A stretch of DNA of 64,000 bases from assembly GCF_030384885.1 (NCBI RefSeq), contig NZ_CP128613.1; one strand, 5' to 3'. Position 1 is the stretch's first letter. The number at the start of each line of letters is the position of its first letter. Positions 30,293 to 46,708 of this stretch are shown one piece after another. The position numbers were made by a program, and so were the translations under genes. The stretch comes from Escherichia coli. GTDB taxonomy: Bacteria > Pseudomonadota > Gammaproteobacteria > Enterobacterales > Enterobacteriaceae. Below the pieces are notes generated by a model, which was not told the origin of the DNA, did not search any database, and saw only the letters and a program-made list of their open reading frames with translations.

Positions 30293-30565
30293 TTATAATT
30301 GAATTAATCCACGGATGCGATAGTTGAGATCTTACATATTGTTGGTTAAAGAGATGTAGATCAAATTGATCGTAATTAAGACTTTTTGATTATGTCCGAT
30401 TTCGGACAAATGCTTTATAAAAAAGGTTTTAGCTTCGTAAGCTTCAAGAAATGAGGGAGAAAACAAGGCTGACTACCTTATTTTCTCACTCGCATTTCGA
30501 GGCAGCATTTTGTGCTCTGTTTAAAATTTGTGATCACAGTGTGATTTTCACAAAAGGCGCACTAT

Positions 30566-31459
<894 letters not shown>

Positions 31460-31510
31460 TTACCTCATCAATCGCTTGTAGTTATATGTTGTGTTGTGCA
31501 CATCTATCCG

Positions 31511-31535
31511 TTTAGACGTCCAGATGTAAAGATGA
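31511..31535. promoter_or_regulatory. MetJ operator (met-box repeats) upstream of metF
   Basis: Tandem 8-bp AGACGTCT-like repeats ttagacgtccagatgtaaagatg just upstream of the metF start. Confidence 0.5.
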
Positions 31536-31808
31536 AGGAAAAGCTGAAGGGCGTCAACCGAAAAATGACCAATGATGGTGAGGAAAAATCAGGGAAGATG
31601 AAAAAAATTCAGGATAAAGGCCAAAGTTCCTCGTACCTGAACATGTGGAATATACCTCATTTAAGATGATATTTATTTGTTTAATTATTTTTTCTATTAA
31701 CCGGTGCAACGAGTGTTAAAGCGTGTAATTTTAGGATTATATCAATAGTCACGGTTATACAAACAGTGATAATTTATGAAATAATTTTATTTACCAGAGG
31801 AATAGCGC

Positions 31809-32783
31809 ATGTATCTTAATACTCAAGTTCAATATAATAAGTTAAATAAAGATGAAAAAAAGATCCTGTTGTTACAAAAGCTAGCCCATTTAACTGATTT
31901 TACTTTTGACAGAATAGAGACATTTTCAGCATTTGGACAATCTACTGAAACAGGTGTTTTTAAATATAAAGATGGCAATGAATTTGTTGTTGTCCCCGGG
32001 GATACAGTAATATTAGGGTGGGATGCCAGTCTCAATAATATGGATGGTCCGACAAAACAAGAATTTGAAGAGATGTTGGAACCAGAAGGTTTAGATTTGA
32101 ATAATTATCTCACCGACTCTTGCACACCTGTCAGGAAGGTTACAATTTCCCCGATGCTGGTTGAAAGAAACGTTCACGCCGAACCAAGTTGGAAGGAAGT
32201 ATCTCTTACGGACCCCCGCATCACAGAGAACAGCATGCTGCAAAAATTTCTGTCTGATTATATGGAAAAAATTAATCCTGGAGTTCACGAATTAAACGCA
32301 AGATTGAGATTACAATATATAGATGGGGATTTATTTGCACAAATATATGAATCAATTAGCTATGATGAGTTACTTCAAAATATCCAAAGCAATAGTTTTG
32401 ATCTTCCGAGCGAAGATGAATGGGAATATTTATGTGGCGGTGGTTCCAGGACACTCTGGCGCTGGGGGAATAATTTCGACTATCAAATGAAAATCCCATT
32501 TATTACTTCAGAAGAACCAACAACCTGGGATATAGAATGGCCTAATCAGTTTGGGTTGCAGATTGCATTTGATCCCTATCTTCAGGAAATTATTAATGAT
32601 AAAGATATTCTTCTGAAAGGTGGCGATGGTGGGTGCAATCTCTGCGGAGGTGCTAATGTTGTATTAGGATTCTTGCCTGTGGCAACTTATTACAAAGGAT
32701 ATAATAAACATACGGACGAATTAGAATATATGGATGACATTGGAGACAATTATACTTCTTATCGCAGAATAATTCGTTTATGA
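31809..32783 (+). CDS. Hypothetical protein, AT-rich gene; weak FGE-sulfatase (SUMF1)-like motif
   Basis: 324 aa ORF with AGAGGA RBS; motif LPSEDEWEYLCGGGSRTLWRWGNNFD resembles the FGE-domain EWEY...GG core; no other FGE signatures recognised. Confidence 0.6.
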   Translation: MYLNTQVQYNKLNKDEKKILLLQKLAHLTDFTFDRIETFSAFGQSTETGVFKYKDGNEFVVVPGDTVILGWDASLNNMDGPTKQEFEEMLEPEGLDLNNYLTDSCTPVRKVTISPMLVERNVHAEPSWKEVSLTDPRITENSMLQKFLSDYMEKINPGVHELNARLRLQYIDGDLFAQIYESISYDELLQNIQSNSFDLPSEDEWEYLCGGGSRTLWRWGNNFDYQMKIPFITSEEPTTWDIEWPNQFGLQIAFDPYLQEIINDKDILLKGGDGGCNLCGGANVVLGFLPVATYYKGYNKHTDELEYMDDIGDNYTSYRRIIRL

Positions 32784-32864
32784 GTAAAAATTATATTTCA
32801 GGACAAGAAGTTATGCTCGAGTCAAGCTAATGAATTGCTTAACGCAAGGAATAAAAACGTATTG

Positions 32865-34346
32865 ATGAACACTGGGAATTTCGAGTCGATACAAATCATG
32901 ATCGCCGCGCAAGAGTGGCGTAGCCTGCCGCTGCATCTGCGTTTGTATCAGGCTTTTCGTCAGTTGGTGATTTCTGGCGCGTTGTCTGATGGCGCAAAAC
33001 TGCCGTCCGCTCGCGCACTGGCCCAGCAACTGCACCTTTCCAGAGATACCATCGAAAATGCCTATTCCCAGCTCCACCGCGACGGTTTTATGGCTCGCAG
33101 GCAGGGGGCCGGGAGTTTCGCCAGCCGCCAGGGGATACCGCATATTCAGGGCCAGCATGCGCAACCACCCTCGCCCGGACAAGTACCGGCTTTAAGCGCT
33201 CGCTGGCAGCCAATTGCCGATCGCGCAGTCTCTTTCGATGCCCGCCAGATGCAGACCTTTACGCTTGGCCTGCCGGAAACGCGAAACTTCCCGCTAAACA
33301 TTTGGCAGAACTTTTCCCGCCAGATCCAACGTGAGCAGGCGCATACGCTGATGTTAAATAGCGATCCGCAGGGCGAGCCACAGCTGCGCCAGCAAATTGC
33401 GCATTACCTTAATTTTGAACGCGGCGCGAAGGTAGATGCCGGGCAGATTGTGATTGTCAGCGGCGCACGGCAGGCGTTCTGGCTGTGCGGGCAACTGCTG
33501 GCAGAGGCCGGACAGTCGGTGGCGATGGAAAATCCGGGCTATCCCGGCGCGCGTCAGGCGTTTTCTGCCGCACAGCTTAATCTTCTTCCCGTTGAAGTGG
33601 ATGACGCCGGGATCCGGGTGGATAAACTGCCGCCCGCGCCGCTGGTTTACGTCACGCCCTCGCACCAGTTTCCTTCCGGTCATTTGCTCACGCTGGCGCG
33701 GCGTCATGCCCTGATTGCCTGGGCGCAGGCGCACAATGCATGGATTATCGAAGACGACTACGACAGCGAATTTCACTACACCAGCGCGCCCGTCGCCTGT
33801 CTGCAAGGGTTAGACTGCGAGCAACGCACCCTGTATGTCGGCACTTTCAGCAAAACGCTCTATCCCGGCCTGCGCATCGGTTATCTGGTGGTGCCGACGT
33901 CGCTGGCTGCGCACTTTGCCGCCGCGCGTAATTTGCTTGATGGCGCAACGCCTGCGTTATCCCAACTAACGCTGGCGCGATTTATCGAGTCCGGTCATTT
34001 TGCCGCCCATATTCGCAACATGCGCAGTATGTACGCAGTGCGACAGGCGAGCCTGGCAGAGGCTATTCATCAACACTTAAGTGAATGGGTCACGCCAGTG
34101 GTGACATCCGGTGGGTTACAAATGCCCTGCTGGCTGCATGAAGGTATTGATGAGCAACAGACGCTAAATGCCGCGCGCCGCGCCGGGTTAAACATCGCCG
34201 GAATGCGCCAGTTCTGGCTGACGCACCCCGCGCCCGCGGGCTGGCTGCTGGGATTTGCCGCCTTTACCCCCTACGAGATTGAACAGGGCGTCAAGCGTCT
34301 GCGGGCTGCATTATGCACTGAAAACGTGCGCCCAGCCGGGTCATAA
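32865..34346 (+). CDS. MocR/GntR-family regulator with fused PLP aminotransferase-like domain
   Basis: N-terminal GntR HTH (…LPSARALAQQLHLSRDTIENAYSQLHRDGFMARRQGAGSFAS…) and large C-terminal fold-type-I-like domain; start ambiguous (TTG 32835, ATG 32865 or 32898). Confidence 0.8.
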   Translation: MNTGNFESIQIMIAAQEWRSLPLHLRLYQAFRQLVISGALSDGAKLPSARALAQQLHLSRDTIENAYSQLHRDGFMARRQGAGSFASRQGIPHIQGQHAQPPSPGQVPALSARWQPIADRAVSFDARQMQTFTLGLPETRNFPLNIWQNFSRQIQREQAHTLMLNSDPQGEPQLRQQIAHYLNFERGAKVDAGQIVIVSGARQAFWLCGQLLAEAGQSVAMENPGYPGARQAFSAAQLNLLPVEVDDAGIRVDKLPPAPLVYVTPSHQFPSGHLLTLARRHALIAWAQAHNAWIIEDDYDSEFHYTSAPVACLQGLDCEQRTLYVGTFSKTLYPGLRIGYLVVPTSLAAHFAAARNLLDGATPALSQLTLARFIESGHFAAHIRNMRSMYAVRQASLAEAIHQHLSEWVTPVVTSGGLQMPCWLHEGIDEQQTLNAARRAGLNIAGMRQFWLTHPAPAGWLLGFAAFTPYEIEQGVKRLRAALCTENVRPAGS

Positions 34347-35397
34347 TCTCATACGGGATGGTGTTGCAGGCAGCGGCAACCTGTTCCAGCGTCTGGCCTG
34401 CGCCAATAAATTCCACCTTATCGCCCGCTGTCGGCGTGACGGCGCTGGCATCGACCATAAAGCTGTCCATACAAACCCGCCCCAATACCGGTAACCGCAC
34501 GCCGCGCCAGCATACGCCCGCCGGAGGACGCATATTTCGCGGAACGCCATCCGCGTAACCCGCGGATATCGTAGCGATACGCAGCGGACGCGTGGCGGTA
34601 ATCGTACTGCCATAGCCAACTGGCGTTCCCGCCGGGACATCCTGCACGCGCAGAATAGTTAGCGTCAGCGTAAAAGCCGGTTTTAGCGGCCTGGAAAACC
34701 ACGGCTGGGCGACGCCAAACAGCGCAATCCCCGGACGGCAGAGATCTTCCCGCCAACCTGGTTGCAAAAACATTCCGCAGGAGTTCGCCAGCGAAAATCG
34801 GCTGCTGGGGAAAACCGTTTTTGCCTGCTGGAATAGCGCGTGTTGCGCCACATTTAACGCATGATCCGGCCTGTCGGCGTTCGCCAGATGGCTGATGATA
34901 TAGTCCGGCGCAGGCCAGTTACGCTCACGAAATATCGCCGCCAGACGCATCAGTTGTTGCGGCATCACGCCCAGCCGCGACATACCGGAATCGAGCTGGA
35001 TCATCACCGCACGCCGCTGCTGGCGCGTTTCCAGTAACGTAAGCCACGCCATCACCTGGTCAATGGAATTGAGCAATGGCGTGATCTGCTGCGCGTAACA
35101 ATACGCCATCGCCTCCGGCATAACCCCATTAAGCACTACCACCATCGCATCAGTGGGCAGGATTTTACGCAGCGCCACGCCCTCCGAAAGCTGTGCCACA
35201 AAAAAGATCCGGCAGTTCGCCGCATACAGGGCGGGCGCAATCGCCTCCGCCCCCAGACCATAGGCATTGGCTTTCAACACCGCGCCACATTGCGCAGGGG
35301 CAACATGGCGCGCCAGCGTGCGATAATTATCGACGATGGCGGCGAGATTGACGCACATAACGCCGCACGCCGCCTGGATTTCAGTAGAAGTCATCAT
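34291..35397 (-). CDS. Alanine racemase-family PLP enzyme (fold type III)
   Basis: PLP-lysine motif AVLKANAYGLGA and C-terminal GRVCMDSFMVD motif; start ATG overlaps the stop of the upstream SHMT-like gene (ATGA). Confidence 0.85.
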   Translation of the reverse strand: MMTSTEIQAACGVMCVNLAAIVDNYRTLARHVAPAQCGAVLKANAYGLGAEAIAPALYAANCRIFFVAQLSEGVALRKILPTDAMVVVLNGVMPEAMAYCYAQQITPLLNSIDQVMAWLTLLETRQQRRAVMIQLDSGMSRLGVMPQQLMRLAAIFRERNWPAPDYIISHLANADRPDHALNVAQHALFQQAKTVFPSSRFSLANSCGMFLQPGWREDLCRPGIALFGVAQPWFSRPLKPAFTLTLTILRVQDVPAGTPVGYGSTITATRPLRIATISAGYADGVPRNMRPPAGVCWRGVRLPVLGRVCMDSFMVDASAVTPTAGDKVEFIGAGQTLEQVAAACNTIPYEIMTRLGARFQCIMQPADA

Positions 35398-36632
35398 TGA
35401 TAAGACAACGGGTAGCGGTTGGTTAGTTGTATTACTTTTTGCTCAATATCGGCGCAAATGCCTGCGATATCTGACGAGTTGATGGCGAAAATGATTTCAC
35501 TTATCCAGTCAGCAATAAGCACAAAATCATCCGCCTTCATCCCACGCGTGGTGCAGGCCGCGCTGCCAATACGGACCCCGGAGGTAATCGACGGCGGCTG
35601 CGGATCGCCCGGCAGGGTGTTTTTATTGACCGTGATCCCCGCCAGTTCGAGAAAGTACTCCACCTGTGCGCCGGTTAACCCCTGCGGGCGCAGGTCGATA
35701 ATCCCCAGATGGCAGTCGGTGCCGCCCGTTAACAGCGTCAGACCGCGCTGCGCCAGTTGCTGGCACATCGCCTGCGCATTGTCGATAACCTACCCGGCGT
35801 AACGTTTAAATTCTGGTTGTAATGCCTCGCCAAGCGCCACCGCTTTCGCCGCGATAACGTGCATCAACGGCCCGCCCTGCAAACCGGGAAAGATGGCGCT
35901 GTCGATTTTTTTCGCAAGCCTGGCGTCATTGGTGAGGATCATGCCGCCGCGCGGCCCGCGCAACGTTTTATGCGTGGTGGTGGTGACCACATCAGCATAC
36001 GCCAGCGGCGAAGGAAAACAGCCGCCCGCCACCAGCCCGGCAAAGTGCGCCATATCCACCAGCAAAATGGCATCAACGGCATCGGCAATGCGGCGAAAAC
36101 GGGCAAAATCATAGTGGCGTGGATAAGCCGATCCTCCGGCAATAATTAACCGTGGGCGCTCGCGTAGCGCGATCATCTCGACCTCATCCATATCAATCAG
36201 GCCACTATGGGCATCGACGCCATAGTGAAAGGCGTTAAACCATTTGCCGGATTGATTGACCGGAGAACCGTGCGTGAGATGCCCGCCGCATTGCAGGCTC
36301 ATGCCAAGAATTTTGTCGCCGGGCTTCAGCAACGCCAGATAGACCGCCTGATTCGCCTGGCTGCCGGAGTGAGGCTGCACATTGACGTAACGCGCGCCAA
36401 AGAGCTGCTGCGCGCGGGTTATCGCCAGCATCTCAACCTCATCAATAAACTTACAGCCGCCGTAATAGCGATGCTGGTAATAACCTTCGGCGTATTTATT
36501 GGTTAACACCGACCCCTGCGCCGCGAGAACGGCGGGGCTTACGAAATTCTCCGAGGCAATCAGTTCCAGCGACTGCTGCTGGCGCTGTTGCTCCTGGTTA
36601 ATCAATGCAAAAAGTGGATCGTTATTTATCAT
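35394..36632 (-). pseudogene. Serine hydroxymethyltransferase (GlyA)-like gene interrupted by an in-frame TAG at 35790-35792
   Basis: N-terminal ORF (…[31 protein letters not shown]…[14 protein letters not shown]…PEFKRYAG*) and C-terminal ORF (VIDNAQAM…TSGVRIGSAA…) are in the same frame, separated only by TAG where GlyA has Gln. Confidence 0.75.
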
Positions 36633-36864
36633 GCGCTTCCCCCGCAAATTCATCATGCGATGATTTTCGCAGGGAAAACCTCGTCCGCACCCTGCCACTT
36701 TTTAGACTGAGCGCAGACCACCTATGTCGTTTTACTTAAAAGAAGAGGGAAGAAGGCTCCAGGCATCTCCATATGCGATTCTGGTTGGTAATACATCATA
36801 TTCCAGCTGCTCTTATCCGCCTACGTTATTGCATATACGGATAAGGCAGCCTCAATACGTACTT

Positions 36865-38430
36865 TTACTTGATATCTTTCACGCGCATACCGTTGATCTG
36901 TTCATCCGTGATGGTATTACCCGCTTTAAAGTAATCAACCACCGCGTGATAAACGTAATAACCGCCCGTCGTATTGCGCGCTTTACCCTCGGTAAACGCG
37001 GTAAAACCATCTCCACCATCAGCAAGGAAACTCTGAGTGGCAATGTGGTAAACCGTCGCATCTTCAATCGGTTCGCCATTCAGAGTCAGCGAGATAACCC
37101 GCTGACCAACCGGCTTGCTGCTGTCGTACTTCATTTCCAGGCCTTTCGATACCTGTAAAACGCCATTACTTAAACTTGCGCCGTGTTCCATCAAACTGCG
37201 TAATTGTTTACCCGTGAGTTCCATCGTCACCAGTTCGTTGGGGAACGGGAAGGTACTGATGACGCCACCCATCGTAATTGCACCCGCCGGGATCTCATTG
37301 CGGATACCGCCAGAGTTGGTTAACGCCAACTGGGTATTTTTACCCGCCGCTGCCAGCAAAGCGTCCGCCGCCAGATTCCCGAGAGAAGCCGATTCACCAT
37401 AGGCACGTTTCAATTCAACTGGCGATTGCGCCACCGTTTGCTGCACGACTTCATCCAGCTTTTTATTCCAACTATCAATCACCTGTTTTGTTTGCGGATC
37501 GGGCTTCCACTCGTCGGCGTAAAGGGTTTTAAGCTCGAAGTTTTTCACCGTAAAAGTGTGCGGCTTCTCTTTGTAGTCTAGAACCAGTTTACCCACATCA
37601 ATCCCGCCGCTGTCAGTGGAGAGGATTAACGTATTGCCGACTTTAATCGGTTCCGGCGTACCCACATGTGCATGCCCGGTGATCAAAATATCCAGCCCTT
37701 TCACCTGACTTGCCGTCTGAATATCTTTATCCAGTGCGCGGCGCACATCTGTGCCCCCCATACTGGACTGGCGGGCCGGAACACCTTCGTGAATCAGCGC
37801 AACGGTCAAATCAACCTTGCCTTTGAGTTCATCGATATAACGTTGTAGCCATTTAATTTCATCACGCGCCTCAATACCCACTCGCGTTGCCGCAGATACC
37901 GTATCATTAAAGGCAAATACACCGTGCAAACCAATCACGCCAATTTTCACGCCGTCTTTTTCAATGATGGTATAGGGCTTATCCCAGAATGATTTACTGC
38001 TGTTCTGATAAAAAACATTACCCTGCACAATCGGGAATTTTGCCTGACTCAACTGTAATAACGTATTGTCCCAGCCGTGATCAAATTCATGATTACCTAT
38101 AGTGGCCGCATCGAACGGCATGGTATTCATAATATCGATAATCGCCTTGCCTTTAGTCAGGCTGCTAATATACGGCCCGGTAAAATAGTCACCCGCATCA
38201 AAAAACCAGGTCGCTTTGTTTTTAGCTTTTTCTTGTTTAACAAGCGTAGTGATATTTGCCCAGCCGCCAATATCTCGTTTACCGTCAGCAATCCACGGCA
38301 CTTTATAAGGCTCTACATGTGCATGGAGGTCGTTGGTATAAATGATGGTGACATCTTTGGCGCAAGCCCAAAACGGCAGTGTTAATGCGATACCCGCAGC
38401 AAGCATTTTAATTTTCATAAACAATCCCAT
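36865..38430 (-). CDS. UshA/CpdB-family periplasmic nucleotidase (paralog A)
   Basis: Signal peptide [20 protein letters not shown]; metallophosphatase motifs [26 protein letters not shown]; C-terminal 5'-nucleotidase-type domain (…[13 protein letters not shown]…). Confidence 0.85.
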
Positions 38431-38550
38431 CCAGTGAGATAAAGGATTGCTACATTACGTTCTGAAAGGCTTTTTTATGTGAGAATACTCACATCCAGAG
38501 GCGATAACTGTAGGACAAAATCAACGACCTTATGAAATCGTTGGTGATAT

Positions 38551-39678
38551 ATGTCAAATCTGTTTGCGATTAATGTCTGTAAAACGTTCGGTTGTCGAAA
38601 TTTGGGATTGGCCTCATCGGAAGATTACAGTTGGCCAGACTATAAACTGGGTTTTCCGGCACTGCACTGCCAGGCATGCGGAAGTTACCCCCCTTTGTTT
38701 GATGAACAACAATTTCGTGACTGGTTGTCAGTTCACATGACTGCGTGTGCCATAGAAACAGGGCATTTTTGTCCATCATGCTATTGTAAAGAAAAGATTT
38801 TTTATGGCCACAACCCGCAGGGAACACAACGCGTTCAATGCCGTTCATGCAAAAAAGTCTGGACTCCGAAACAGCAGCCAGCAAGAGAAATTACGTATCC
38901 CCAGTCCATTGAAACCGTTCAACTGTTCATGCCCTTTCAAGGAGCCAGCGCAGTACAAAAGCTCTATGTTTTAGTCAGTCTTGACGCCACTCGTGGCAAC
39001 ATCCTTCATCTCTCCACGAATTATACGCAACATCAGACAGGAGACAGTCTGCGGTACAGTTACAGAGGCAATACAGAACCAACTGAGCACCATAGCGATA
39101 TTGCGCAGAGGGTAGATATGCGTGAAGCACAATTCTTGCGCCGGAGCCAGTTCGATGAAATTCAGTATGGCAGTGCTGTGCTCAAGCGCAACGGCAAGGG
39201 AGCCATACTACGCCCGGTTATCACGGCACACGGGCATTTCAGAATACTGAAAATCCGCTTTCCACATGTCAAAACGCATATCATTTCACACGAATGTTTT
39301 CTGAGAGGCGCAATTATTACAGCCTGGGCAGATCAGTTCCGCCAACAACAAGGCGAACTTTGGTTCGTAGAGGAAGAAATCAGCGACCGTAATGCTGATA
39401 TTCCCTGGCATTTTCAGGGAACGACATACCATGGTTGGTGGCAAAATCAGTGGCAACGCTGGGGGCAGGGGAATAACAGCAAGATGGTCTGCCTGCTCAC
39501 AGGAGTCTCCTTAGAAAGGGGCGCAAATGTTTCTCTGGCAACCAGTCGTTGCTTTATCACATGGCTGACAGACCAACACGACTTTACCCAAAGCGCGTTA
39601 TTATCCGCAGGTCGCGTAACGAAAATGCTGACCTCACTGGCGTTAAAATACAATGAATCGCTCACTCCATCTTGTTAG
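38551..39678 (+). CDS. Hypothetical cysteine-rich protein with N-terminal zinc-ribbon motifs (transposase-like zinc ribbon?)
   Basis: 375 aa; C-x4-C, C-x2-C, C-x2-C…C-x2-C spacing including FYGHNPQGTQRVQCRSCKKVW, resembling IS1 InsA / IS1595-type ribbons; remainder unassigned. Confidence 0.6.
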   Translation: MSNLFAINVCKTFGCRNLGLASSEDYSWPDYKLGFPALHCQACGSYPPLFDEQQFRDWLSVHMTACAIETGHFCPSCYCKEKIFYGHNPQGTQRVQCRSCKKVWTPKQQPAREITYPQSIETVQLFMPFQGASAVQKLYVLVSLDATRGNILHLSTNYTQHQTGDSLRYSYRGNTEPTEHHSDIAQRVDMREAQFLRRSQFDEIQYGSAVLKRNGKGAILRPVITAHGHFRILKIRFPHVKTHIISHECFLRGAIITAWADQFRQQQGELWFVEEEISDRNADIPWHFQGTTYHGWWQNQWQRWGQGNNSKMVCLLTGVSLERGANVSLATSRCFITWLTDQHDFTQSALLSAGRVTKMLTSLALKYNESLTPSC

Positions 39679-39907
39679 TCAATACACTCGACAAACGACC
39701 ATAAATTAATGGGATCACTATTTCTCATTTAATTAAATATATGAATGTATGACTGAAAAATATAATCACAGTCAATGTTTAATTAATAACATTATTTGTT
39801 ACTAAGATCACATAATACTTTCCTGACCTATGTTTACATAAAAATAAGACACGGTGTTCCTTTTATTTAAATAATTCAACCAATGTAACAACCCCTATCA
39901 AGGAGGG

Positions 39908-41461
39908 ATGATGAGAACTGTATTTACGACTTTATCAGTCATATTCAGCGTGATGTTTTCTCACAGTATACTAGCTCAGGACGTTACTATTTATTATACG
40001 AATGATATTCACGCACATGTCAATCCGGCAAAAATTCCCGCTGTTGATAAGAACAGACTTGTAGGTGGTATGGCTAATATTGCAGGCATCGTTAATGAAG
40101 CGAAGAAAAAAAACAAAGATGTCTTTTTCTTTGATGCAGGCGACTATTTTACCGGTCCGTATATCAGTACCCTGACCAAAGGTGAAGCTATTATTGATAT
40201 CATGAACACCATGCCCTTTGATGCGGTGTCCGTTGGTAATCACGAGTTCGATCACGGCGTGCCCAATATGGTATCTCAGTTATCAAAAGCAAAATTCCCC
40301 ATTCTGCTGGGAAATATTTACTACACCGATACAAATAAACCAGTTTGGGATCATCCGTGGACCATTATCGAAAAAGATGGTTTAAAGATTGGTGTGATTG
40401 GATTGCATGGTGCATTCGCTTTCTATGATACAGTCGCGGCAAAAGCACGTGAAGGCGTAGAAGCCAGAGACGAAATTAAATATTTAAATAAAGCACTTGC
40501 AGAATTAAAAGGTAAAGTCGACATTACCGTTTTGCTAATTCACGAAGGTGTTCCGGCGCGTCAATCAAGCTTTGGTAGTAAAGATGTGGAGCGGCTACTA
40601 CAGGCAGATATTGAGACAGCTAAAAAAGTGAATGGTGTTGATGTCTTAATTACCGGTCACGCACATGTCGGAACACCGCAACCAATAAAAGTTAATAACA
40701 CATTAATTGTATCTACCGATGCATACGGCACCGACATCGGAAAACTTGTGCTTGATTACAATCCGAAAACAAAGAAAATTGATAGTTATAATGGTGAGTT
40801 AATCACCATCTTTGCAGATCAATTTAAACCTGACACCATCGTTCAAAATACTATCGATAAATGGAGCATAAAGCTTAACAAAATAACACAGGAAGTTGTC
40901 GGCCATTCTCCCGTAGTTTTAACACGTGAGTATGGCAGTTCTTCTTCTACCGGTAACCTTATTCTAGATGCAATGATGGAAAAAACACCTGATGCCATTG
41001 CCGGATTTCAAAATAGCGGTGGGATGCGAGCTGATTTTCCTAAAGGTGATATCACACTGGGAGATGTTATTAGCACATTCCCCTTTAATAATGACCTCAT
41101 CGAGATGGATTTGACGGGCCGCGATCTCAAATCATTGATGACGCATGCAACCAATCTAACTAACGGTGTGTTACAGGTTTCAAAAAGCGTTGCGGTTGTC
41201 TATGACAGCAAAAAACCACTCAACCAACGGTTAATCTCTTTCACCATTAACGGCAAACCCGTGGAAGATAATCAAACATATCGTATTGCCACGCACTCCT
41301 TTTGTGCCAGTGGTGGTGACGGTTTTGAAGCATTTTTGAATGGAAAAAATGTGAAGACGATACCGGGAACAACCTCGGCGGAATCTATCATCGATTATTT
41401 CAAAAATCATAAACCTGTCACCCCAGACTTAACTAAACGAGTCATGGACGTCGCCAAATAA
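39908..41461 (+). CDS. UshA/CpdB-family periplasmic nucleotidase (paralog B, most divergent)
   Basis: Signal peptide, same metallophosphatase motif set ([26 protein letters not shown]); AGGAGG RBS at 39901. Confidence 0.85.
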   Translation: MMRTVFTTLSVIFSVMFSHSILAQDVTIYYTNDIHAHVNPAKIPAVDKNRLVGGMANIAGIVNEAKKKNKDVFFFDAGDYFTGPYISTLTKGEAIIDIMNTMPFDAVSVGNHEFDHGVPNMVSQLSKAKFPILLGNIYYTDTNKPVWDHPWTIIEKDGLKIGVIGLHGAFAFYDTVAAKAREGVEARDEIKYLNKALAELKGKVDITVLLIHEGVPARQSSFGSKDVERLLQADIETAKKVNGVDVLITGHAHVGTPQPIKVNNTLIVSTDAYGTDIGKLVLDYNPKTKKIDSYNGELITIFADQFKPDTIVQNTIDKWSIKLNKITQEVVGHSPVVLTREYGSSSSTGNLILDAMMEKTPDAIAGFQNSGGMRADFPKGDITLGDVISTFPFNNDLIEMDLTGRDLKSLMTHATNLTNGVLQVSKSVAVVYDSKKPLNQRLISFTINGKPVEDNQTYRIATHSFCASGGDGFEAFLNGKNVKTIPGTTSAESIIDYFKNHKPVTPDLTKRVMDVAK

Positions 41462-41495
41462 AATATCATTTATCAGTCTATTTATTTAACAAGGA

Positions 41496-43121
41496 ATGCG
41501 AATGAAAACAGTGCAGCGTACTTTACTTGCCGCAACATTGCTGACTATTTTTTCGGTCTCGGTCATGGCGCAGGATGTCACGATTATTTATACAAATGAT
41601 CTTCACGCTCATGTGGATTCTTATAAAGTGCCGTATATCGCAGACGGAAAACGCGACATTGGCGGCTTTGCCAATATATCTACTTTAGTAAAACAAGAGA
41701 AAGCGAAAAATAAAGCCACCTTTTATTTTGATGCTGGAGACTATTTCACCGGCCCTTATATCAGCAGTCTGACAAAGGGCGAAGCAATAATTGACATTAT
41801 GAATACCATGCCTTTTGACGCAGTATCAATCGGTAATCATGAGTTTGACCATGGCTGGGATAATGCCCTGCGACAATTAAGCAAAGCGAATTTTCCTGTT
41901 TTATTGGGCAATGTTTATCATAAAGAGAGTGAAAAACCCTTCTGGAACAAGCCCTACACCATCCTGGAAAAAGATGGCATCAAGATTGGTATTATTGGGC
42001 TACACGGCGTATTTGCATTTAATGATACGGTCTCGGAGCTCTCTCTCCAGGGACTCGATAATGACAATAATAACCGCTTTGATAAATCTTCCGAGACCCT
42101 TAAGAATCAGGGGATTGAAGCACGTGATGAAGTGAAGTATTTGCAGCATTATATCGACGAGTTACGTGATAAGGTTGACCTCACTGTGGCGCTGGTTCAT
42201 GAAGGCGTTCCGGCGCGTCAGTCCAGCATTGGCAATACAGATGTTAGACGCGCTCTTGATAAAGATATTCAAACCGCTAGCAAGGTGAAAGGATTGGATA
42301 TTCTGATTACCGGGCATGCCCACGTCGGAACGCCAGAACCAATCAAAGTCGGCAACACCTTAATCCTTTCGACTGATAGTGGCGGTATCGATATTGGTAA
42401 ATTAGTCCTTGATGTCAACCCTACAGCTCGTACCCATAAAATGAAGAGCTTTGAGCTGAAAACAGTTTATGCCGATGAATGGATACCCGATCCAACGACA
42501 CAAAAAGTTATCAATGGCTGGAATAAAAAACTGGCGGATATTGTACGCCAACCAGTGGGTGAATCATCGATTGCATTAACTCGCGCCTATGGTGAGTCAT
42601 CGCAACTAGGCAACCTGTTTACCGATGCAATGCTTGTCGCTGCTCCGACTGCACAGATTGCATTGATAAACTCCGGCAGCTTACGTGCGGATATAAATGC
42701 AGGCACGATTACCTTTGGCGACATTACCAGTACATTCCCCTTCAAGAATGAACTTACTGAAATGGATCTCAGCGGTAAGGATCTGCGTAACCTACTGGAA
42801 CACGGGGCATCGCTTACCAATGGCATCCTGCAAATGTCAAAAGGCGCAGAAATGCGCTATACCCCGCAGAAACCAGTAGGTCAGCGCATAGTATCTTTTA
42901 AAATTAATGGTGAAGAGATCGTTGATACGAATATTTACCATGTTGCAACAACGACTTTCCTTGCACTGGGGGGCGATGGTTTTCTGGCATTCAAAGAAGG
43001 GAAAAATGTTCAGGTCCGCGCCGGAAAAAACATGTCCGATGTCGTGATCGATTATTTGAAGAAAGGCCACAAGATTACGCCTGCACAGGTAAATGAAATG
43101 CGGGTGGACGTTAGCAAATAA
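41496..43121 (+). CDS. UshA/CpdB-family periplasmic nucleotidase (paralog C, with ~27 aa Asn/Asp-rich insert)
   Basis: Signal peptide; same motif set; insert ELSLQGLDNDNNNRFDKSSETLKNQG absent from paralogs A and B; real start probably ATG 41502. Confidence 0.85.
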   Translation: MRMKTVQRTLLAATLLTIFSVSVMAQDVTIIYTNDLHAHVDSYKVPYIADGKRDIGGFANISTLVKQEKAKNKATFYFDAGDYFTGPYISSLTKGEAIIDIMNTMPFDAVSIGNHEFDHGWDNALRQLSKANFPVLLGNVYHKESEKPFWNKPYTILEKDGIKIGIIGLHGVFAFNDTVSELSLQGLDNDNNNRFDKSSETLKNQGIEARDEVKYLQHYIDELRDKVDLTVALVHEGVPARQSSIGNTDVRRALDKDIQTASKVKGLDILITGHAHVGTPEPIKVGNTLILSTDSGGIDIGKLVLDVNPTARTHKMKSFELKTVYADEWIPDPTTQKVINGWNKKLADIVRQPVGESSIALTRAYGESSQLGNLFTDAMLVAAPTAQIALINSGSLRADINAGTITFGDITSTFPFKNELTEMDLSGKDLRNLLEHGASLTNGILQMSKGAEMRYTPQKPVGQRIVSFKINGEEIVDTNIYHVATTTFLALGGDGFLAFKEGKNVQVRAGKNMSDVVIDYLKKGHKITPAQVNEMRVDVSK

Positions 43122-43133
43122 TAAAAAAATTAT

Positions 43134-43165
43134 AATGCCATTCATTCACTGAATGGCATTATTTT
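43134..43165 (+). terminator. Terminator-like hairpin after nucleotidase paralog C
   Basis: atgccattca-ttcac-tgaatggcat followed by T-rich tract. Confidence 0.5.
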
Positions 43166-43198
43166 CTCTAAATCAACAATAGATAATGAGATATATTT

Positions 43199-44059
43199 AT
43201 GTGTATAAAAAAGCACGGGATAGCTTTATCGATTCTATTAATACCTTGCATTGGAAACGCTCAGAAAATTAAAAGTGAGGAAGGCTGGTTACATCAAAGC
43301 TTGAATGTCATTGGTCGCACAGACTCTCGCTTTGGCCCAAGGCTGACTAACGACCTCTACCCTGAATATACTGTAGCAGGAAGAAAAGACTGGTTTGATT
43401 TTTATGGTTATGTTGATCTACCAAAATTCTTTGGCGTCGGCAGTCACTATGATGTTGGGATCTGGGATGAGGGCTCACCACTATTTACGGAAATAGAACC
43501 TCGGTTTTCCATTGACAAATTGACCGGATTAAATCTTGCGTTCGGCCCTTTTAAAGAATGGTTCATTGCAAACAACTATGTCTATGATATGGGTGACAAC
43601 CAGTCATCCCGGCAAAGTACATGGTATATGGGGCTTGGTACAGATATCGACACGGGTCTACCAATTAAGCTTTCTGCCAATATATACGCCAAGTATCAGT
43701 GGCAAAACTATGGTGCCGCTAATGAAAATGAATGGGACGGATATCGATTCAAAATAAAATATAGCATTCCTCTTACCCATTTATTCGGAGGGCGATTGGT
43801 ATACAATAGTTTTACTAACTTTGATTTTGGATCCGATCTTGCGGACAAATCACACAATAATAAACGAACCAGTAATGCTATTGCTTCAAGCCATATCCTT
43901 TCCCTGCTATATGAACACTGGAAATTTGCATTTACACTACGTTATTTTCACAACGGTGGACAATGGAATGCTGGGGAGAAAGTTAACTTCGGAGATGGTC
44001 CATTTGAATTAAAAAACACAGGATGGGGAACCTATACTACTATTGGTTATCAATTTTAA
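43199..44059 (+). CDS. Tsx-family nucleoside-specific outer-membrane channel paralog
   Basis: Signal peptide, C-terminal Phe; long colinear blocks matching Tsx as recalled (…KDWFDFYGY…[12 protein letters not shown]…[14 protein letters not shown]…[26 protein letters not shown]…). Confidence 0.85.
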
Positions 44060-44275
44060 ATCAGGTGATGTTTTAGATATTTTTACTTAATGCCATTTTG
44101 TAATTGTCATAAATAACTTCACCATTCACACTGTGAATTCATCGCTCAACACAAAAGCCCCCTTATTACCGGGGCACTGACCAAAGGCAAAATGACAATC
44201 AATCACCACCTCCGCAGGAGGTGGTTTAGAGGTGACAACAAAAGCTGGCAACTGCCAGCTTTTGTTCAATAATCA

Positions 44276-46708
44276 CTACAACAACTGCGCCAGACGGTTA
44301 ATATCCGACTGAATCGCCCCGGCGGTGACGTCGCGCCCTGCGCCTGGCCCACGGATCACCAGCGGGTTGTCGCGATACCAGCGGCTTTCGATGGCAAAGA
44401 CGTTATCGCACGGTAGTAGTGATGCCAGCGGATGGTCTTCTCGCACCGCTTCCACGCCTACTCGCGCTTTGCCGTTAGCATCGAAACGCGCCACGTAGCG
44501 CAACACCAGCCCCATTTCACGGGCCGCTTCCAACCGTTGTACCATCTGCTCATTAAGTTCATCGCCATTTTCAAAGAAATGGTCGATGCTGCCACCTTCG
44601 CAATGGGTTGGCACCAGTGATTCAACACGCACCTGGTCCGGTTCAATGTTGTAACCCGCTTCACGCGCCAGAATCACCAGCTTGCGCATCACATCTTTGC
44701 CGGAGAGGTCATCACGCGGGTCAGGTTCAGTTAAGCCCTGCTGCCACGCCTGATCCACCAGCTCAGTAAACGGCACGCTACCGTCGAATTGCAGGAACAG
44801 CCAGGAGAGCGTGCCGGAGAAGATCCCGCTGATCGACAAAATAGTGTCGCCGCTGTCGATCAGATCGCGCACGGTATGGTTGATCGGCAAACCTGCGCCG
44901 ACGGTGGCGTTGTATAGCCAGTGACGCCCGGTTTTTTCGAACGCGTCGTGGATCTGTCGATATTTATTGCTGTCGCTGGCTCCCGCCAGTTTGTTGGCAC
45001 TGATGACGTGGAAACCGTGGCTGGCGAAATCGAGATACTGATCAGCAAGCTGCTGGCTGGCAGTAACGTCCAGCACCACTAAATCATCATACGGATGGGC
45101 ACGCATCCACAGGAACAGCGACTCTTCATCCTGTTCGACGGCTTCATCATTAAAGAAGGCTAGCGCACGGCTGGCGTCCAGCCCGTCATAGCTCAACAGG
45201 CTGCGACGGCTGTCCACCACGCCTGCCAGCACAAATTCAAAGCCGGTGCGCGCCGAGAGCGTGCTCTGCTCACGGGCGAACAGTTCCAGCCAGCGGGAAC
45301 CGATATTGCCCTTACCGAACAATACCAGGCCGATGCGTTTTTCTGCGCGGAAGACGGACTGATGCAGCCCCTGAATCAGGCTTTCGGTAGGTCCGGTACG
45401 CAGTACTGCCACCAGGCTGATGCCGTCATCGGACTGCCAGGTAAATTCGACCGGCTGGCCTTTCAGTTGCTGCCAGAAGCGGTGGCAATGCAGCGGGTTA
45501 CGGGTGACGCCTGCACCAACCATCGCCACCAGCGCCAGCCCCTGACGCAGGCGCAGTTCGCCAGGTAATCCTGCTTCGTCGAGGATTTTCAGCGCACTAT
45601 CGGCCACTTCCGAGGTGTAGCAAAATTGCAGCAACTGGCGATCGTTATGCACGCCAACCGCCAGTGGGCGCACCTGAGCACGTTTCAGGATTTGGTCGAT
45701 CTCTTTATGCGCCAGTTTGAAATCCTGACTGGCGGGCACCTGAAACTCAATCAAACAGACATCATCGTGGCTGGTGACAATACGCGCGCCAGTACCGGAA
45801 GCCAGCACGCGTTCAATGCGCGTGGAACCTTGATCCGGCGTGTAGCTACAGCGCAGCTGCAGGTCGATTTCACTGCCAGAAACTGGCTGTAAAGTACGGG
45901 CGTGAAGAACGGGGGCCGCCAGACGCGCCAGTTCACTGGCTTCATCAAGACGCAGCAATGGCAGCAGGCAGGCATCTTTCACTTTACGCGGGTCAGCGCT
46001 GTATACCCCGGCGACGTCGCTCCAGATGGTTACGCGGGAAACTCCCGCCAGCGCACCGATTTGTGTCGCGGAATAGTCGGAACCGTTACGCCCCAGCAGC
46101 ACCGTTTCACCGGCGTTGTTACGGCTGATAAACCCGGTCACCACCAGACGTTTGCCCGGATGTTGTACCAGTAGCTGTTGCAGCAACGGGTAAGAAAGCC
46201 CTTCATCAACCTGCGGCTGCGCGGCGCGTTCAGCGCGTAAAAACTCGCGGGCATCAAGCCAGGCCGCAGGCAATCCTTGTTGATTAAGTACCGCAGACAT
46301 CAGGCGCGCCGACCACACTTCACCGTGGCCCACCACTTCCGCATACACCGCATCGTTAATACCGCTGTCGAGCAGCGCCGCCAGGCGTTCCAGATCGCTG
46401 ACAAAAGCGCTAATGAGGCTATCGGCTTCTTCGGCGGGTAGCAGGCCGCTAATCAGATCGCACTGATAGCGACGCAGCGTTTGTTGAACCTGATGCGCAG
46501 AGAGACGATCGGTCTGGCTTAGTTTCAACCAGTTAATCAACTGGTTAGTGGTGCTACCGGCGGCGGAAACCACCATCATATCGTCAGGCTGAGAGTACTC
46601 CGCCATAATGCCCGCGACACGCAAATAACACTTCACATCAGCCAGACTACTGCCACCAAATTTATGCAGTTGACGACCTTTCGCCCCTGCCTGCGCAATC
46701 ACACTCAT
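44276..46708 (-). CDS. metL: Bifunctional aspartokinase II / homoserine dehydrogenase II
   Basis: 810 aa, MSVIAQAGAKGRQLHKFGGSSLADVKCYLRVAGIMAEY... Confidence 0.95.
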   Translation of the reverse strand: MSVIAQAGAKGRQLHKFGGSSLADVKCYLRVAGIMAEYSQPDDMMVVSAAGSTTNQLINWLKLSQTDRLSAHQVQQTLRRYQCDLISGLLPAEEADSLISAFVSDLERLAALLDSGINDAVYAEVVGHGEVWSARLMSAVLNQQGLPAAWLDAREFLRAERAAQPQVDEGLSYPLLQQLLVQHPGKRLVVTGFISRNNAGETVLLGRNGSDYSATQIGALAGVSRVTIWSDVAGVYSADPRKVKDACLLPLLRLDEASELARLAAPVLHARTLQPVSGSEIDLQLRCSYTPDQGSTRIERVLASGTGARIVTSHDDVCLIEFQVPASQDFKLAHKEIDQILKRAQVRPLAVGVHNDRQLLQFCYTSEVADSALKILDEAGLPGELRLRQGLALVAMVGAGVTRNPLHCHRFWQQLKGQPVEFTWQSDDGISLVAVLRTGPTESLIQGLHQSVFRAEKRIGLVLFGKGNIGSRWLELFAREQSTLSARTGFEFVLAGVVDSRRSLLSYDGLDASRALAFFNDEAVEQDEESLFLWMRAHPYDDLVVLDVTASQQLADQYLDFASHGFHVISANKLAGASDSNKYRQIHDAFEKTGRHWLYNATVGAGLPINHTVRDLIDSGDTILSISGIFSGTLSWLFLQFDGSVPFTELVDQAWQQGLTEPDPRDDLSGKDVMRKLVILAREAGYNIEPDQVRVESLVPTHCEGGSIDHFFENGDELNEQMVQRLEAAREMGLVLRYVARFDANGKARVGVEAVREDHPLASLLPCDNVFAIESRWYRDNPLVIRGPGAGRDVTAGAIQSDINRLAQLL

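Follow-up and report, generated by a model that had tools for sequence, protein, structure and literature searches.

A rare gene in the metF-metL gap of Escherichia coli encodes a predicted FGE-fold protein of a widespread family and may be an orphan toxin-immunity gene

The FGE-fold immunity proteins known so far come only from proteobacterial type VI secretion system (T6SS) loci and are represented by Tsi3 of Acinetobacter baumannii, which has the fold of the formylglycine-generating enzyme (FGE), lacks the FGE cysteines and binds the T6SS effector Tse3 as its immunity protein (Lopez et al. 2021, bioRxiv 10.1101/2021.05.21.445229). Tsi3 proteins carry clear Pfam FGE domains, are confined to the Proteobacteria and occur with a T6SS in 98% of cases, while their genes adjoin tse3, vgrG or PAAR genes and form tandem arrays of divergent paralogues in 84% of occurrences (bioRxiv 10.1101/2021.05.21.445229). 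A different setting for immunity genes is the heterogeneous polyimmunity locus, described along with polyimmunity proteins by Zhang et al. (2011, 2012; PMC3113570, PMC3482391): a same-orientation array without toxin genes, with immunity domains that include SUFU, SUKH, Imm-NTF2, ankyrin and LRR (PMC3482391). Here we compare with these systems the gene at 31809-32783 of a 64,000-nucleotide stretch of the Escherichia coli chromosome around katG-metF (RefSeq contig NZ_CP128613.1, here called the window), which encodes a protein of 324 amino acids. We put at roughly one half the probability that this gene belongs, as an orphan copy, to a new toxin-immunity family with the FGE fold, predicted from sequence to bind an incoming toxin; the reading is based on the genomic context of its relatives, on their fusions and on the Tsi3 precedent.

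A preliminary description of the gene had noticed a partial FGE-like motif, LPSEDEWEYLCGGGSRTLWRWGNNFD, at residues 199-224. The motif is well founded, and the agreement extends to the entire protein, whose three-dimensional fold agrees with solved FGE-fold structures, with Foldseek concurring. The figures tabulated for this fold comparison are 11.9 for PorK, 11.8 for PvdO, 11.6 for CalU17, 11.4 both for pFGE/SUMF2 and for TvpA, a variable protein of the diversity-generating retroelement (DGR) class, 11.0 for ToxD and 9.7 for EgtB, with 138-187 residues aligned at 16-21% identity; a viral structure library gave no match. Searched as a profile against PDB, the family finds FGE chains at E ~3e-5, and a single-sequence search of PDB sequences with the E. 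coli protein finds a 35-residue motif alone. The FGE-sulfatase profile of Pfam matches over residues 184-226 only (43 residues, E 3.7e-4) and with a score of 20.7 bits lies below the gathering score of 23.3; some family members carry a precomputed PF03781 match, and scans of the E. coli protein with NCBIfam, PADLOC and PHROGs yielded sub-threshold FGE-motif matches or none. When aligned by hhalign with a human FGE fragment, itself verified against PDB 1y1e, LPSEDEWEYLCGG and PNQFGL pair with FGE motifs at a probability of 96-97%, both core motifs of FGE (LPTExEWEY and PNxxGL) being alignable with the family, and C209 can confidently be regarded, from this alignment, as the counterpart of human FGE C235. 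By structural modelling the whole protein is built on the FGE (C-type-lectin-like) fold, with about 150 family-specific residues in an N-terminal extension and two insertions.

These extra residues, together with an identity of 11-21%, set the protein apart from FGE (SUMF1), pFGE/SUMF2, PvdO, ToxD, CalU17, EgtB and OvoA alike. It also differs from EgtB and OvoA in having neither a DinB domain nor the His triad, and assignment as an EgtB/OvoA/SenA-type synthase was rejected on the missing N-terminal DinB_2 domain. A ring lipoprotein of the type IX secretion system of the PorK/GldK type was rejected as well (with TIGR03525 the protein reaches 13.6 bits where 350 are required, and the N-terminus is not hydrophobic, its first 30 residues having a mean hydropathy of -0.64). 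The FGE fold is used as a binding scaffold in DGR variable proteins. A variable protein of the Mtd, TvpA or TaqVP type, which would call for a template repeat matching the 3' end of the gene and a reverse transcriptase nearby, was likewise considered and set aside; because the repeat is missing, we do not regard the 324-residue protein as a DGR target.

Although the preliminary description called the gene an orphan, it has a large family. A sequence search at E<=1e-3 returned 360 homologues of about 325 residues, 36-58% identical over their full length, from sources such as Paenibacillus, Cohnella, Brevibacillus, Clostridium, Listeria, Chitinophaga, Tenacibaculum, Prevotellaceae, Breznakiella and Helicobacteraceae; a profile search of 1.84 billion cluster representatives gave 284 clusters (50% identity) at E<=1e-30; and a scan of one genome per species placed relatives in 355 species. 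The distribution is patchy, taking in Bacillota, Bacteroidota, Fusobacteriota, Spirochaetota, Campylobacterota and Enterobacteriaceae, with most members in the first three of these. Escherichia fergusonii has near-identical copies. The gene is annotated as hypothetical in E. coli, E. fergusonii and Escherichia albertii, some copies in the databases go under 'formylglycine-generating enzyme family protein', and several homologues carry the NCBI name 'SUMF1/EgtB/PvdO family nonheme iron enzyme'. The literature searched yielded nothing under a description of the family, DUF4241, the protein accession or the locus tag, and the few papers on related DUFs do not describe the family.

The ratio of nonsynonymous to synonymous substitution rates (dN/dS) is 0.07 against E. 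albertii and 0.07-0.22 across the Escherichia orthologues, those of the cryptic clade included, and because of this purifying selection we regard the open reading frame (ORF) as a real gene. Among the same orthologues dS reaches 1.3-1.45, near saturation, and in the comparison with E. albertii the gene has 15 times the dN of the adjacent metF. Frameshifted copies occur in Listeria costaricensis (L016:10001-10959) and Superficieibacter electus (L032:10001-10974), and since each consists of two tblastn segments in different frames they are probable pseudogenes. The family gene has no match in phage genomes and 3 weak matches in 72,556 plasmid records, so it is not typical cargo of mobile elements. 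Rarity, frameshifts, raised dN with low dN/dS and patchy spread are together typical of dispensable conflict genes.

The surroundings of the relatives were sampled at 80 related loci. Genes were called crudely there, the family gene being recovered as an ORF in 75; the genes within six genes of each copy were clustered, and the cluster representatives were annotated with Pfam. The most frequent neighbour, at 33 loci, is a giant protein of 1477-2402 amino acids (SUFU + DUF4253 + DUF7832 + TPR), encoded on the same strand and nearly always one to five genes downstream. It is followed by NADAR (20 loci), by Imm-NTF2, DUF6892/DUF7738 and DUF6881 (10 loci each) and by Tpt1/KptA (9 loci). At least one of these six clusters is present in 43 of the 75 loci, and a same-strand SUFU giant or Imm-NTF2 gene in 35 of the 75, mostly from gut Clostridia; the co-directional run in these 35 loci has a median of 7 genes. 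Families that recur among 150 random non-redundant neighbours include Imm51, SMI1_KNR4 (SUKH), SUFU, DUF6892 and DUF6881. The same-strand, toxin-free arrays and giant fusions of the relatives match the definition of heterogeneous polyimmunity loci. The link between this family and such loci is new. The FGE fold is not one of the 90-odd immunity families listed in PMC3482391, and the terms 'FGE', 'sulfatase' and 'C-type lectin' are absent from that text. As a separate observation, the giant at L054:11464-15897 and those at 32 similar loci of gut Clostridia lie beside NADAR, Tpt1/KptA, Imm-NTF2, DUF6892, DUF6881 and DUF6547 genes, and a large polyimmunity array with many uncharacterised members is apparently common to these loci.

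In other lineages the theme recurs with different neighbours. Brevibacillus and Paenibacillus have a DUF4253 gene directly upstream and a colicin/pyocin immunity gene nearby; in a metagenome-assembled genome (MAG) of Peptococcaceae a DUF4261 gene lies 5 bp downstream; at locus L084 the gene for a 977-residue SUKH protein begins 32 bp downstream; and in Clostridium the next gene downstream encodes an 880-residue ankyrin protein, genes for HEAT and WGR proteins lying farther off on the upstream side. In a Cytophagales MAG an LRR protein gene adjoins the family gene, and the copy at locus L098, in a giant fusion protein, has ankyrin, DUF1266 and DUF4261 genes around it. In Fusobacterium sp. oral taxon 370 (L034:2885-3355) and a Leptotrichia MAG (L039:9462-9947) a gene for 2-thiouracil desulfurase (PF04463) ends 8 bp upstream. 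Two genes beyond the desulfurase in L034, also upstream, lies the gene for a Pnkp-like RNA-repair protein (kinase + phosphatase + RNA ligase); such neighbours may hint at a nucleic-acid or sulfur-related activity.

The family domain is also frequently found fused to DUF4241 (P0122, P0129, P0135, L036 and L047), to DUF4261 (P0126 and P0127) and to DUF1963/YwqG (P0160), further partners being DUF5713, TPR and DUF6966, the last of which also occurs as a separate gene adjoining the family gene. Among the fusions seen, the partners are uncharacterised and none is a SUKH, SuFu or Imm family joined directly to the family domain. Fusions to carboxyl transferase, T2SS ATPase, PilM and resolvase were disregarded, as they resemble assembly or gene-calling chimeras, and P0224 was removed from the family as a canonical multi-FGE repeat protein. 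The YwqG connection has a precedent in Burroughs and Aravind (2014, PMC4275035), who noted in passing that YwqG/DUF1963 proteins occur joined to an N-terminal C-type-lectin-fold domain, to ankyrin repeats and to WGR, and proposed for them a general protein-protein-interaction or chaperone-like role; the present family is not described in that paper. The P0160 fusion and the WGR and ankyrin neighbours in Clostridium are shared features of the YwqG/TYPP proteins and our family, whereas the E. coli protein is a stand-alone domain.

Comparison with Tsi3 shows both kinship and distance. Each consists of one domain of the FGE fold, no enzymatic role has been demonstrated for either, and each has orphan copies; the role proposed for the present family, to neutralise an interbacterial toxin by binding it, is that of Tsi3. 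The present family, however, falls below the Pfam threshold and belongs mostly to Bacillota, Bacteroidota and Fusobacteriota, a distinction drawn from the published description of Tsi3 rather than from a comparison of sequences, and most of its hosts are Gram-positive. Cysteines close to where FGE has its active site are retained in the family and missing from Tsi3. Unlike the tandem arrays of Tsi3, no second family copy was seen within 10 kb at 75 loci, the double matches being frameshifted single genes. No tse3, vgrG, PAAR or DUF4123 gene is annotated within 20 kb of the E. coli gene, and T6SS-type genes are absent both from the recurrent clusters scanned and from the families listed for the 150 sampled neighbours. 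With the polyimmunity domains the relatives share same-strand toxin-free arrays of unrelated small genes, a patchy spread and isolated orphan copies, and their fusions with TPR and other domains of this sort may be a further parallel, but the array context belongs to the relatives, the E. coli gene itself being solitary, and the conservation of the family is much higher than is usual for those domains.

If the protein is indeed an immunity protein, it would stay in the cytoplasm of the host cell and, when a competitor delivers an effector, would bind the effector's toxic domain and block its toxicity; the E. coli copy would be an orphan, with no toxin gene adjoining. We infer the immunity function, the binding mechanism and the transfer of both from relatives 35-45% identical to the E. 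coli protein. Neither a signal peptide nor a membrane segment was found in the protein, and the isoelectric point is acidic (4.46, against a family median of 4.67); we have counted these features for the immunity reading, the acidic isoelectric point being weak evidence. Were the reading correct, this would be a second and broader FGE-fold immunity family, occurring in 355 species or more, chiefly gut Clostridia, Fusobacteria, Bacteroidota and soil Bacillota. The known means of interbacterial defence would be extended, a gene now called hypothetical in three Escherichia species would receive a name and a function that can be tested, and DUF4241, DUF4261, DUF4253, DUF6966 and DUF5713 would be tied to the same biology.

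Several observations weigh against this reading. No toxin gene or toxin domain was found among the immediate neighbours in about 80 loci, which otherwise are housekeeping genes, DUFs and immunity-type domains; because no member in these loci has a toxin gene beside it, no cognate pair anchors the proposed function. The closest relatives, namely those of E. coli, E. albertii, E. fergusonii, Listeria, P0003, Breznakiella and several Paenibacillus copies, stand solitary among housekeeping genes, and the polyimmunity context comes mainly from gut-Clostridia copies 35-40% identical to the E. coli protein, which may share one mobile array. Polyimmunity is a computational concept. To our knowledge none of DUF4241, DUF4261 and DUF4253 has a tested function. 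Finally, the family is much better conserved than is usual for immunity proteins that act by binding: counted over 162 full-length members, 26 positions are at least 95% conserved, identity across phyla is about 40%, and among the conserved positions are those of the glycine-rich Asp/Cys loop, which falls where FGE has its active site.

This last point is also the main argument for regarding the protein as an enzyme rather than a binder, with a metal or redox site, made up of the GGDGGC(N)xCGG loop, C209 and D273, that would reverse toxin-inflicted damage ('enzymatic immunity') or perhaps act on a sulfur-containing metabolite. D273 is present in 161 of the 162 members (99%), C279 in 96% and C209 in 92%. 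Under permissive settings hhalign sets KGGDGGCNLCGG opposite KGGSYMCHRSYC, with C276 and C279 facing the copper ligands C336 and C341 of human FGE, and C209 pairs with FGE C235, which is adjacent to the active-site loop. The polyimmunity arrays themselves hold true enzymes (NADAR, Tpt1/KptA, the Pnkp-like protein), the desulfurase gene adjoins the family gene in two genera of Fusobacteriales, and the NCBI name of several homologues points the same way. It is because of the high conservation and the invariant Asp/Cys glycine-rich loop that the enzymatic alternative stays alive, though we think it rather unlikely: 36% of members have S, G, A, V or R instead of C276, the spacing is CxxC where FGE has CxxxxC, the cysteine part of the alignment is a low-confidence stretch, and many of the invariant residues belong to the motifs that define the fold in all proteins of the FGE superfamily, non-enzymatic ones included. 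Moreover, no substrate-related gene is conserved across lineages, and the FGE-fold Tsi3, DGR variable proteins and PorK have no enzymatic role. A more definite version is a little more doubtful still, namely that the family forms a novel enzymatic branch of this fold, whose loop and C209, at the position of the FGE copper site, would hold a metal and chemically reverse a change that a toxin has made to protein, RNA or nucleotide, in parallel with the NADAR, Tpt1, RNA-repair and thiouracil-desulfurase genes beside it; if true, such catalytic immunity would explain how a conflict-associated protein can be some 40% identical across phyla. The oxidative modifying enzyme envisaged in the preliminary description has nothing to support it, since no sulfatase gene or biosynthetic cluster lies near in the neighbourhoods examined, C276 is kept in just 64% of members and the context of the relatives points to toxin immunity. 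A bona fide FGE that matures a sulfatase we consider very improbable. Fold and core motif agree with it, the cysteine pair sits roughly at the place of the FGE copper ligands and some database copies bear the name, but the Pfam match is short and sub-threshold, identity to FGE structures is 11-21%, the cysteines are differently spaced with the first not conserved, and sulfatase, siderophore, toxoflavin, enediyne and ergothioneine genes were all missing near the family gene in the neighbourhoods examined.

Two other explanations, that the gene works as part of the metabolic island beside it and that it is a decaying remnant, turn on the layout of the metF-metL gap. The gene is carried by 2 of 5426 complete E. 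coli genomes; ordinary E. coli has in its place 192 bp of filler resembling repetitive extragenic palindromes, its homology to the window ending at 31615 and restarting at 44277. In E. albertii, which aligns without a break over 30321-32779 (83.7%), homology ends at 32779 and restarts at 44282, so that the gap holds the ORF module (31616-32779) alone. The order in E. fergusonii is ORF, MocR, alanine racemase (alr), intact serine hydroxymethyltransferase (SHMT), 5'-nucleotidase and a 376-residue protein. In Escherichia sp. MOD1-EC7003 a 136-bp MocR remnant (window 32880-33015) stands between the ORF and the nucleotidase, and Superficieibacter has its frameshifted copy without MocR, alr or SHMT. 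Because of the arrangements in E. albertii, MOD1-EC7003 and Superficieibacter we take the ORF to be an independent module of a variable hotspot; by these sequence comparisons the ORF with its 190 bp upstream (31616-32783) is a module of its own and the 11.5 kb from MocR to Tsx a separate piece, and the co-occurrence of ORF and MocR is lineage-specific synteny. The island edge of the preliminary description is therefore correct in that the gene adjoins the MocR segment, but not in making it part of that island, and the suggested association with MocR breaks down, the gene being without MocR in the three lineages just named and in every other lineage examined. That the gene should still be a target of MocR/PdxR, or a partner of the racemase, SHMT or nucleotidase, is improbable: it does lie on the same strand 51-81 bp upstream of MocR in the window, in other island-positive E. 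coli and in E. fergusonii, yet MocR is not among the recurrent neighbour clusters in the other 70-odd loci, and the GC content of the ORF is 37% as against 59-60% in the MocR-alr-SHMT block. There is likewise just a slight chance that the gene is a remnant without current function in E. coli. Its loss from almost all E. coli, the frameshifts in two other species and the pseudogene state of the adjacent island SHMT would suit such decay, but E. coli, E. fergusonii, E. albertii and the cryptic Escherichia clade all have an uninterrupted frame, dN/dS is low despite near-saturated dS, and the E. coli protein has kept all the conserved motifs. For the window itself the result is a modest one: the metF-metL hotspot carries here an accessory gene that is rare and has no relation to the adjacent metabolic island.

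Coordinates of the gene, its signals, conserved segments and module boundary in the window
Feature	Position	Strand	Remarks
Upstream region, part of the gene's module	31616-31808	+	AT-rich; not in ordinary E. coli; common to E. albertii
Ribosome-binding site AGAGGA	31796-31801	+	7 nt 5' of ATG; read from sequence
Coding sequence	31809-32783	+	324 aa; predicted FGE-fold single domain with lineage-specific insertions; cytoplasmic (predicted), acidic
Residues 58-70, EFVVVPGDTVILG	31980-32018	+	First conserved strand pair; F59, P63, G64 and G70 >=95% conserved
Residues 199-224, LPSEDEWEYLCGGGSRTLWRWGNNFD	32403-32480	+	Core FGE-superfamily motif; C209 pairs with human FGE C235
Residues 245-260, PNQFGLQIAFDPYLQE	32541-32588	+	Counterpart of FGE PNxxGL; N246, F248, G249, P256, Y257 and E260 >=95% conserved
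Residues 270-281, KGGDGGCNLCGG	32616-32651	+	Family-specific glycine-rich Asp/Cys loop, set opposite FGE active-site segment KGGSYMCHRSYC in a low-confidence stretch of the alignment
Junction of gene module and MocR-alr-SHMT-5'-nucleotidase-Tsx segment (~32780-44276)	32784-32834	.	End of E. albertii homology; GC 0.37-0.40 -> 0.60

The strong ribosome-binding site and the A/T-rich codon usage, unlike that of metF, which the preliminary description had pointed out, are both borne out by the sequence. The ORF has a GC content of 36.6% and a third-position GC of 30.8%, against 52.4% and 58.6% for metF. Shuffled sequences contain hexamers like the promoter-like ones at 31746-31785 at least as often. 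Two small ORFs of the region resemble annotation noise: one of 183 residues in the window (31118-31669, + strand), antisense to metF and reaching into the intergenic region, and a 44-residue 'hypothetical protein' annotated in the metF-metL gap of ordinary E. coli (L002:8133-8267).

The gap as a whole (window 31616-44276) is a layered variable hotspot. In E. fergusonii it optionally also holds LysR and CMD genes; the window adds, beyond the E. fergusonii layout, two further 5'-nucleotidase paralogues and a Tsx channel. The island SHMT of the window (35394-36698, - strand) is split into ORFs of 302 and 124 amino acids, and RefSeq lists it as a pseudogene on account of an internal stop; in E. 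fergusonii this gene of the island is intact, with 411 amino acids. Clustered at ~36865-44060 are three paralogous genes for bifunctional metallophosphatase/5'-nucleotidases, one for a 376-residue 'cytoplasmic protein' and one for the Tsx nucleoside channel, a combination that suggests a nucleoside-scavenging module. In NZ_CP027579, whose strain is a match for the window, the DNA past metJ-yiiX and about 17-20 kb beyond the ORF (L001:37827-41501) has, in place of the rpmE-priA of ordinary E. coli, an ISAs1 transposase, the reverse transcriptase of a group II intron, part of an IS1 and an ORF of an Rhs element.

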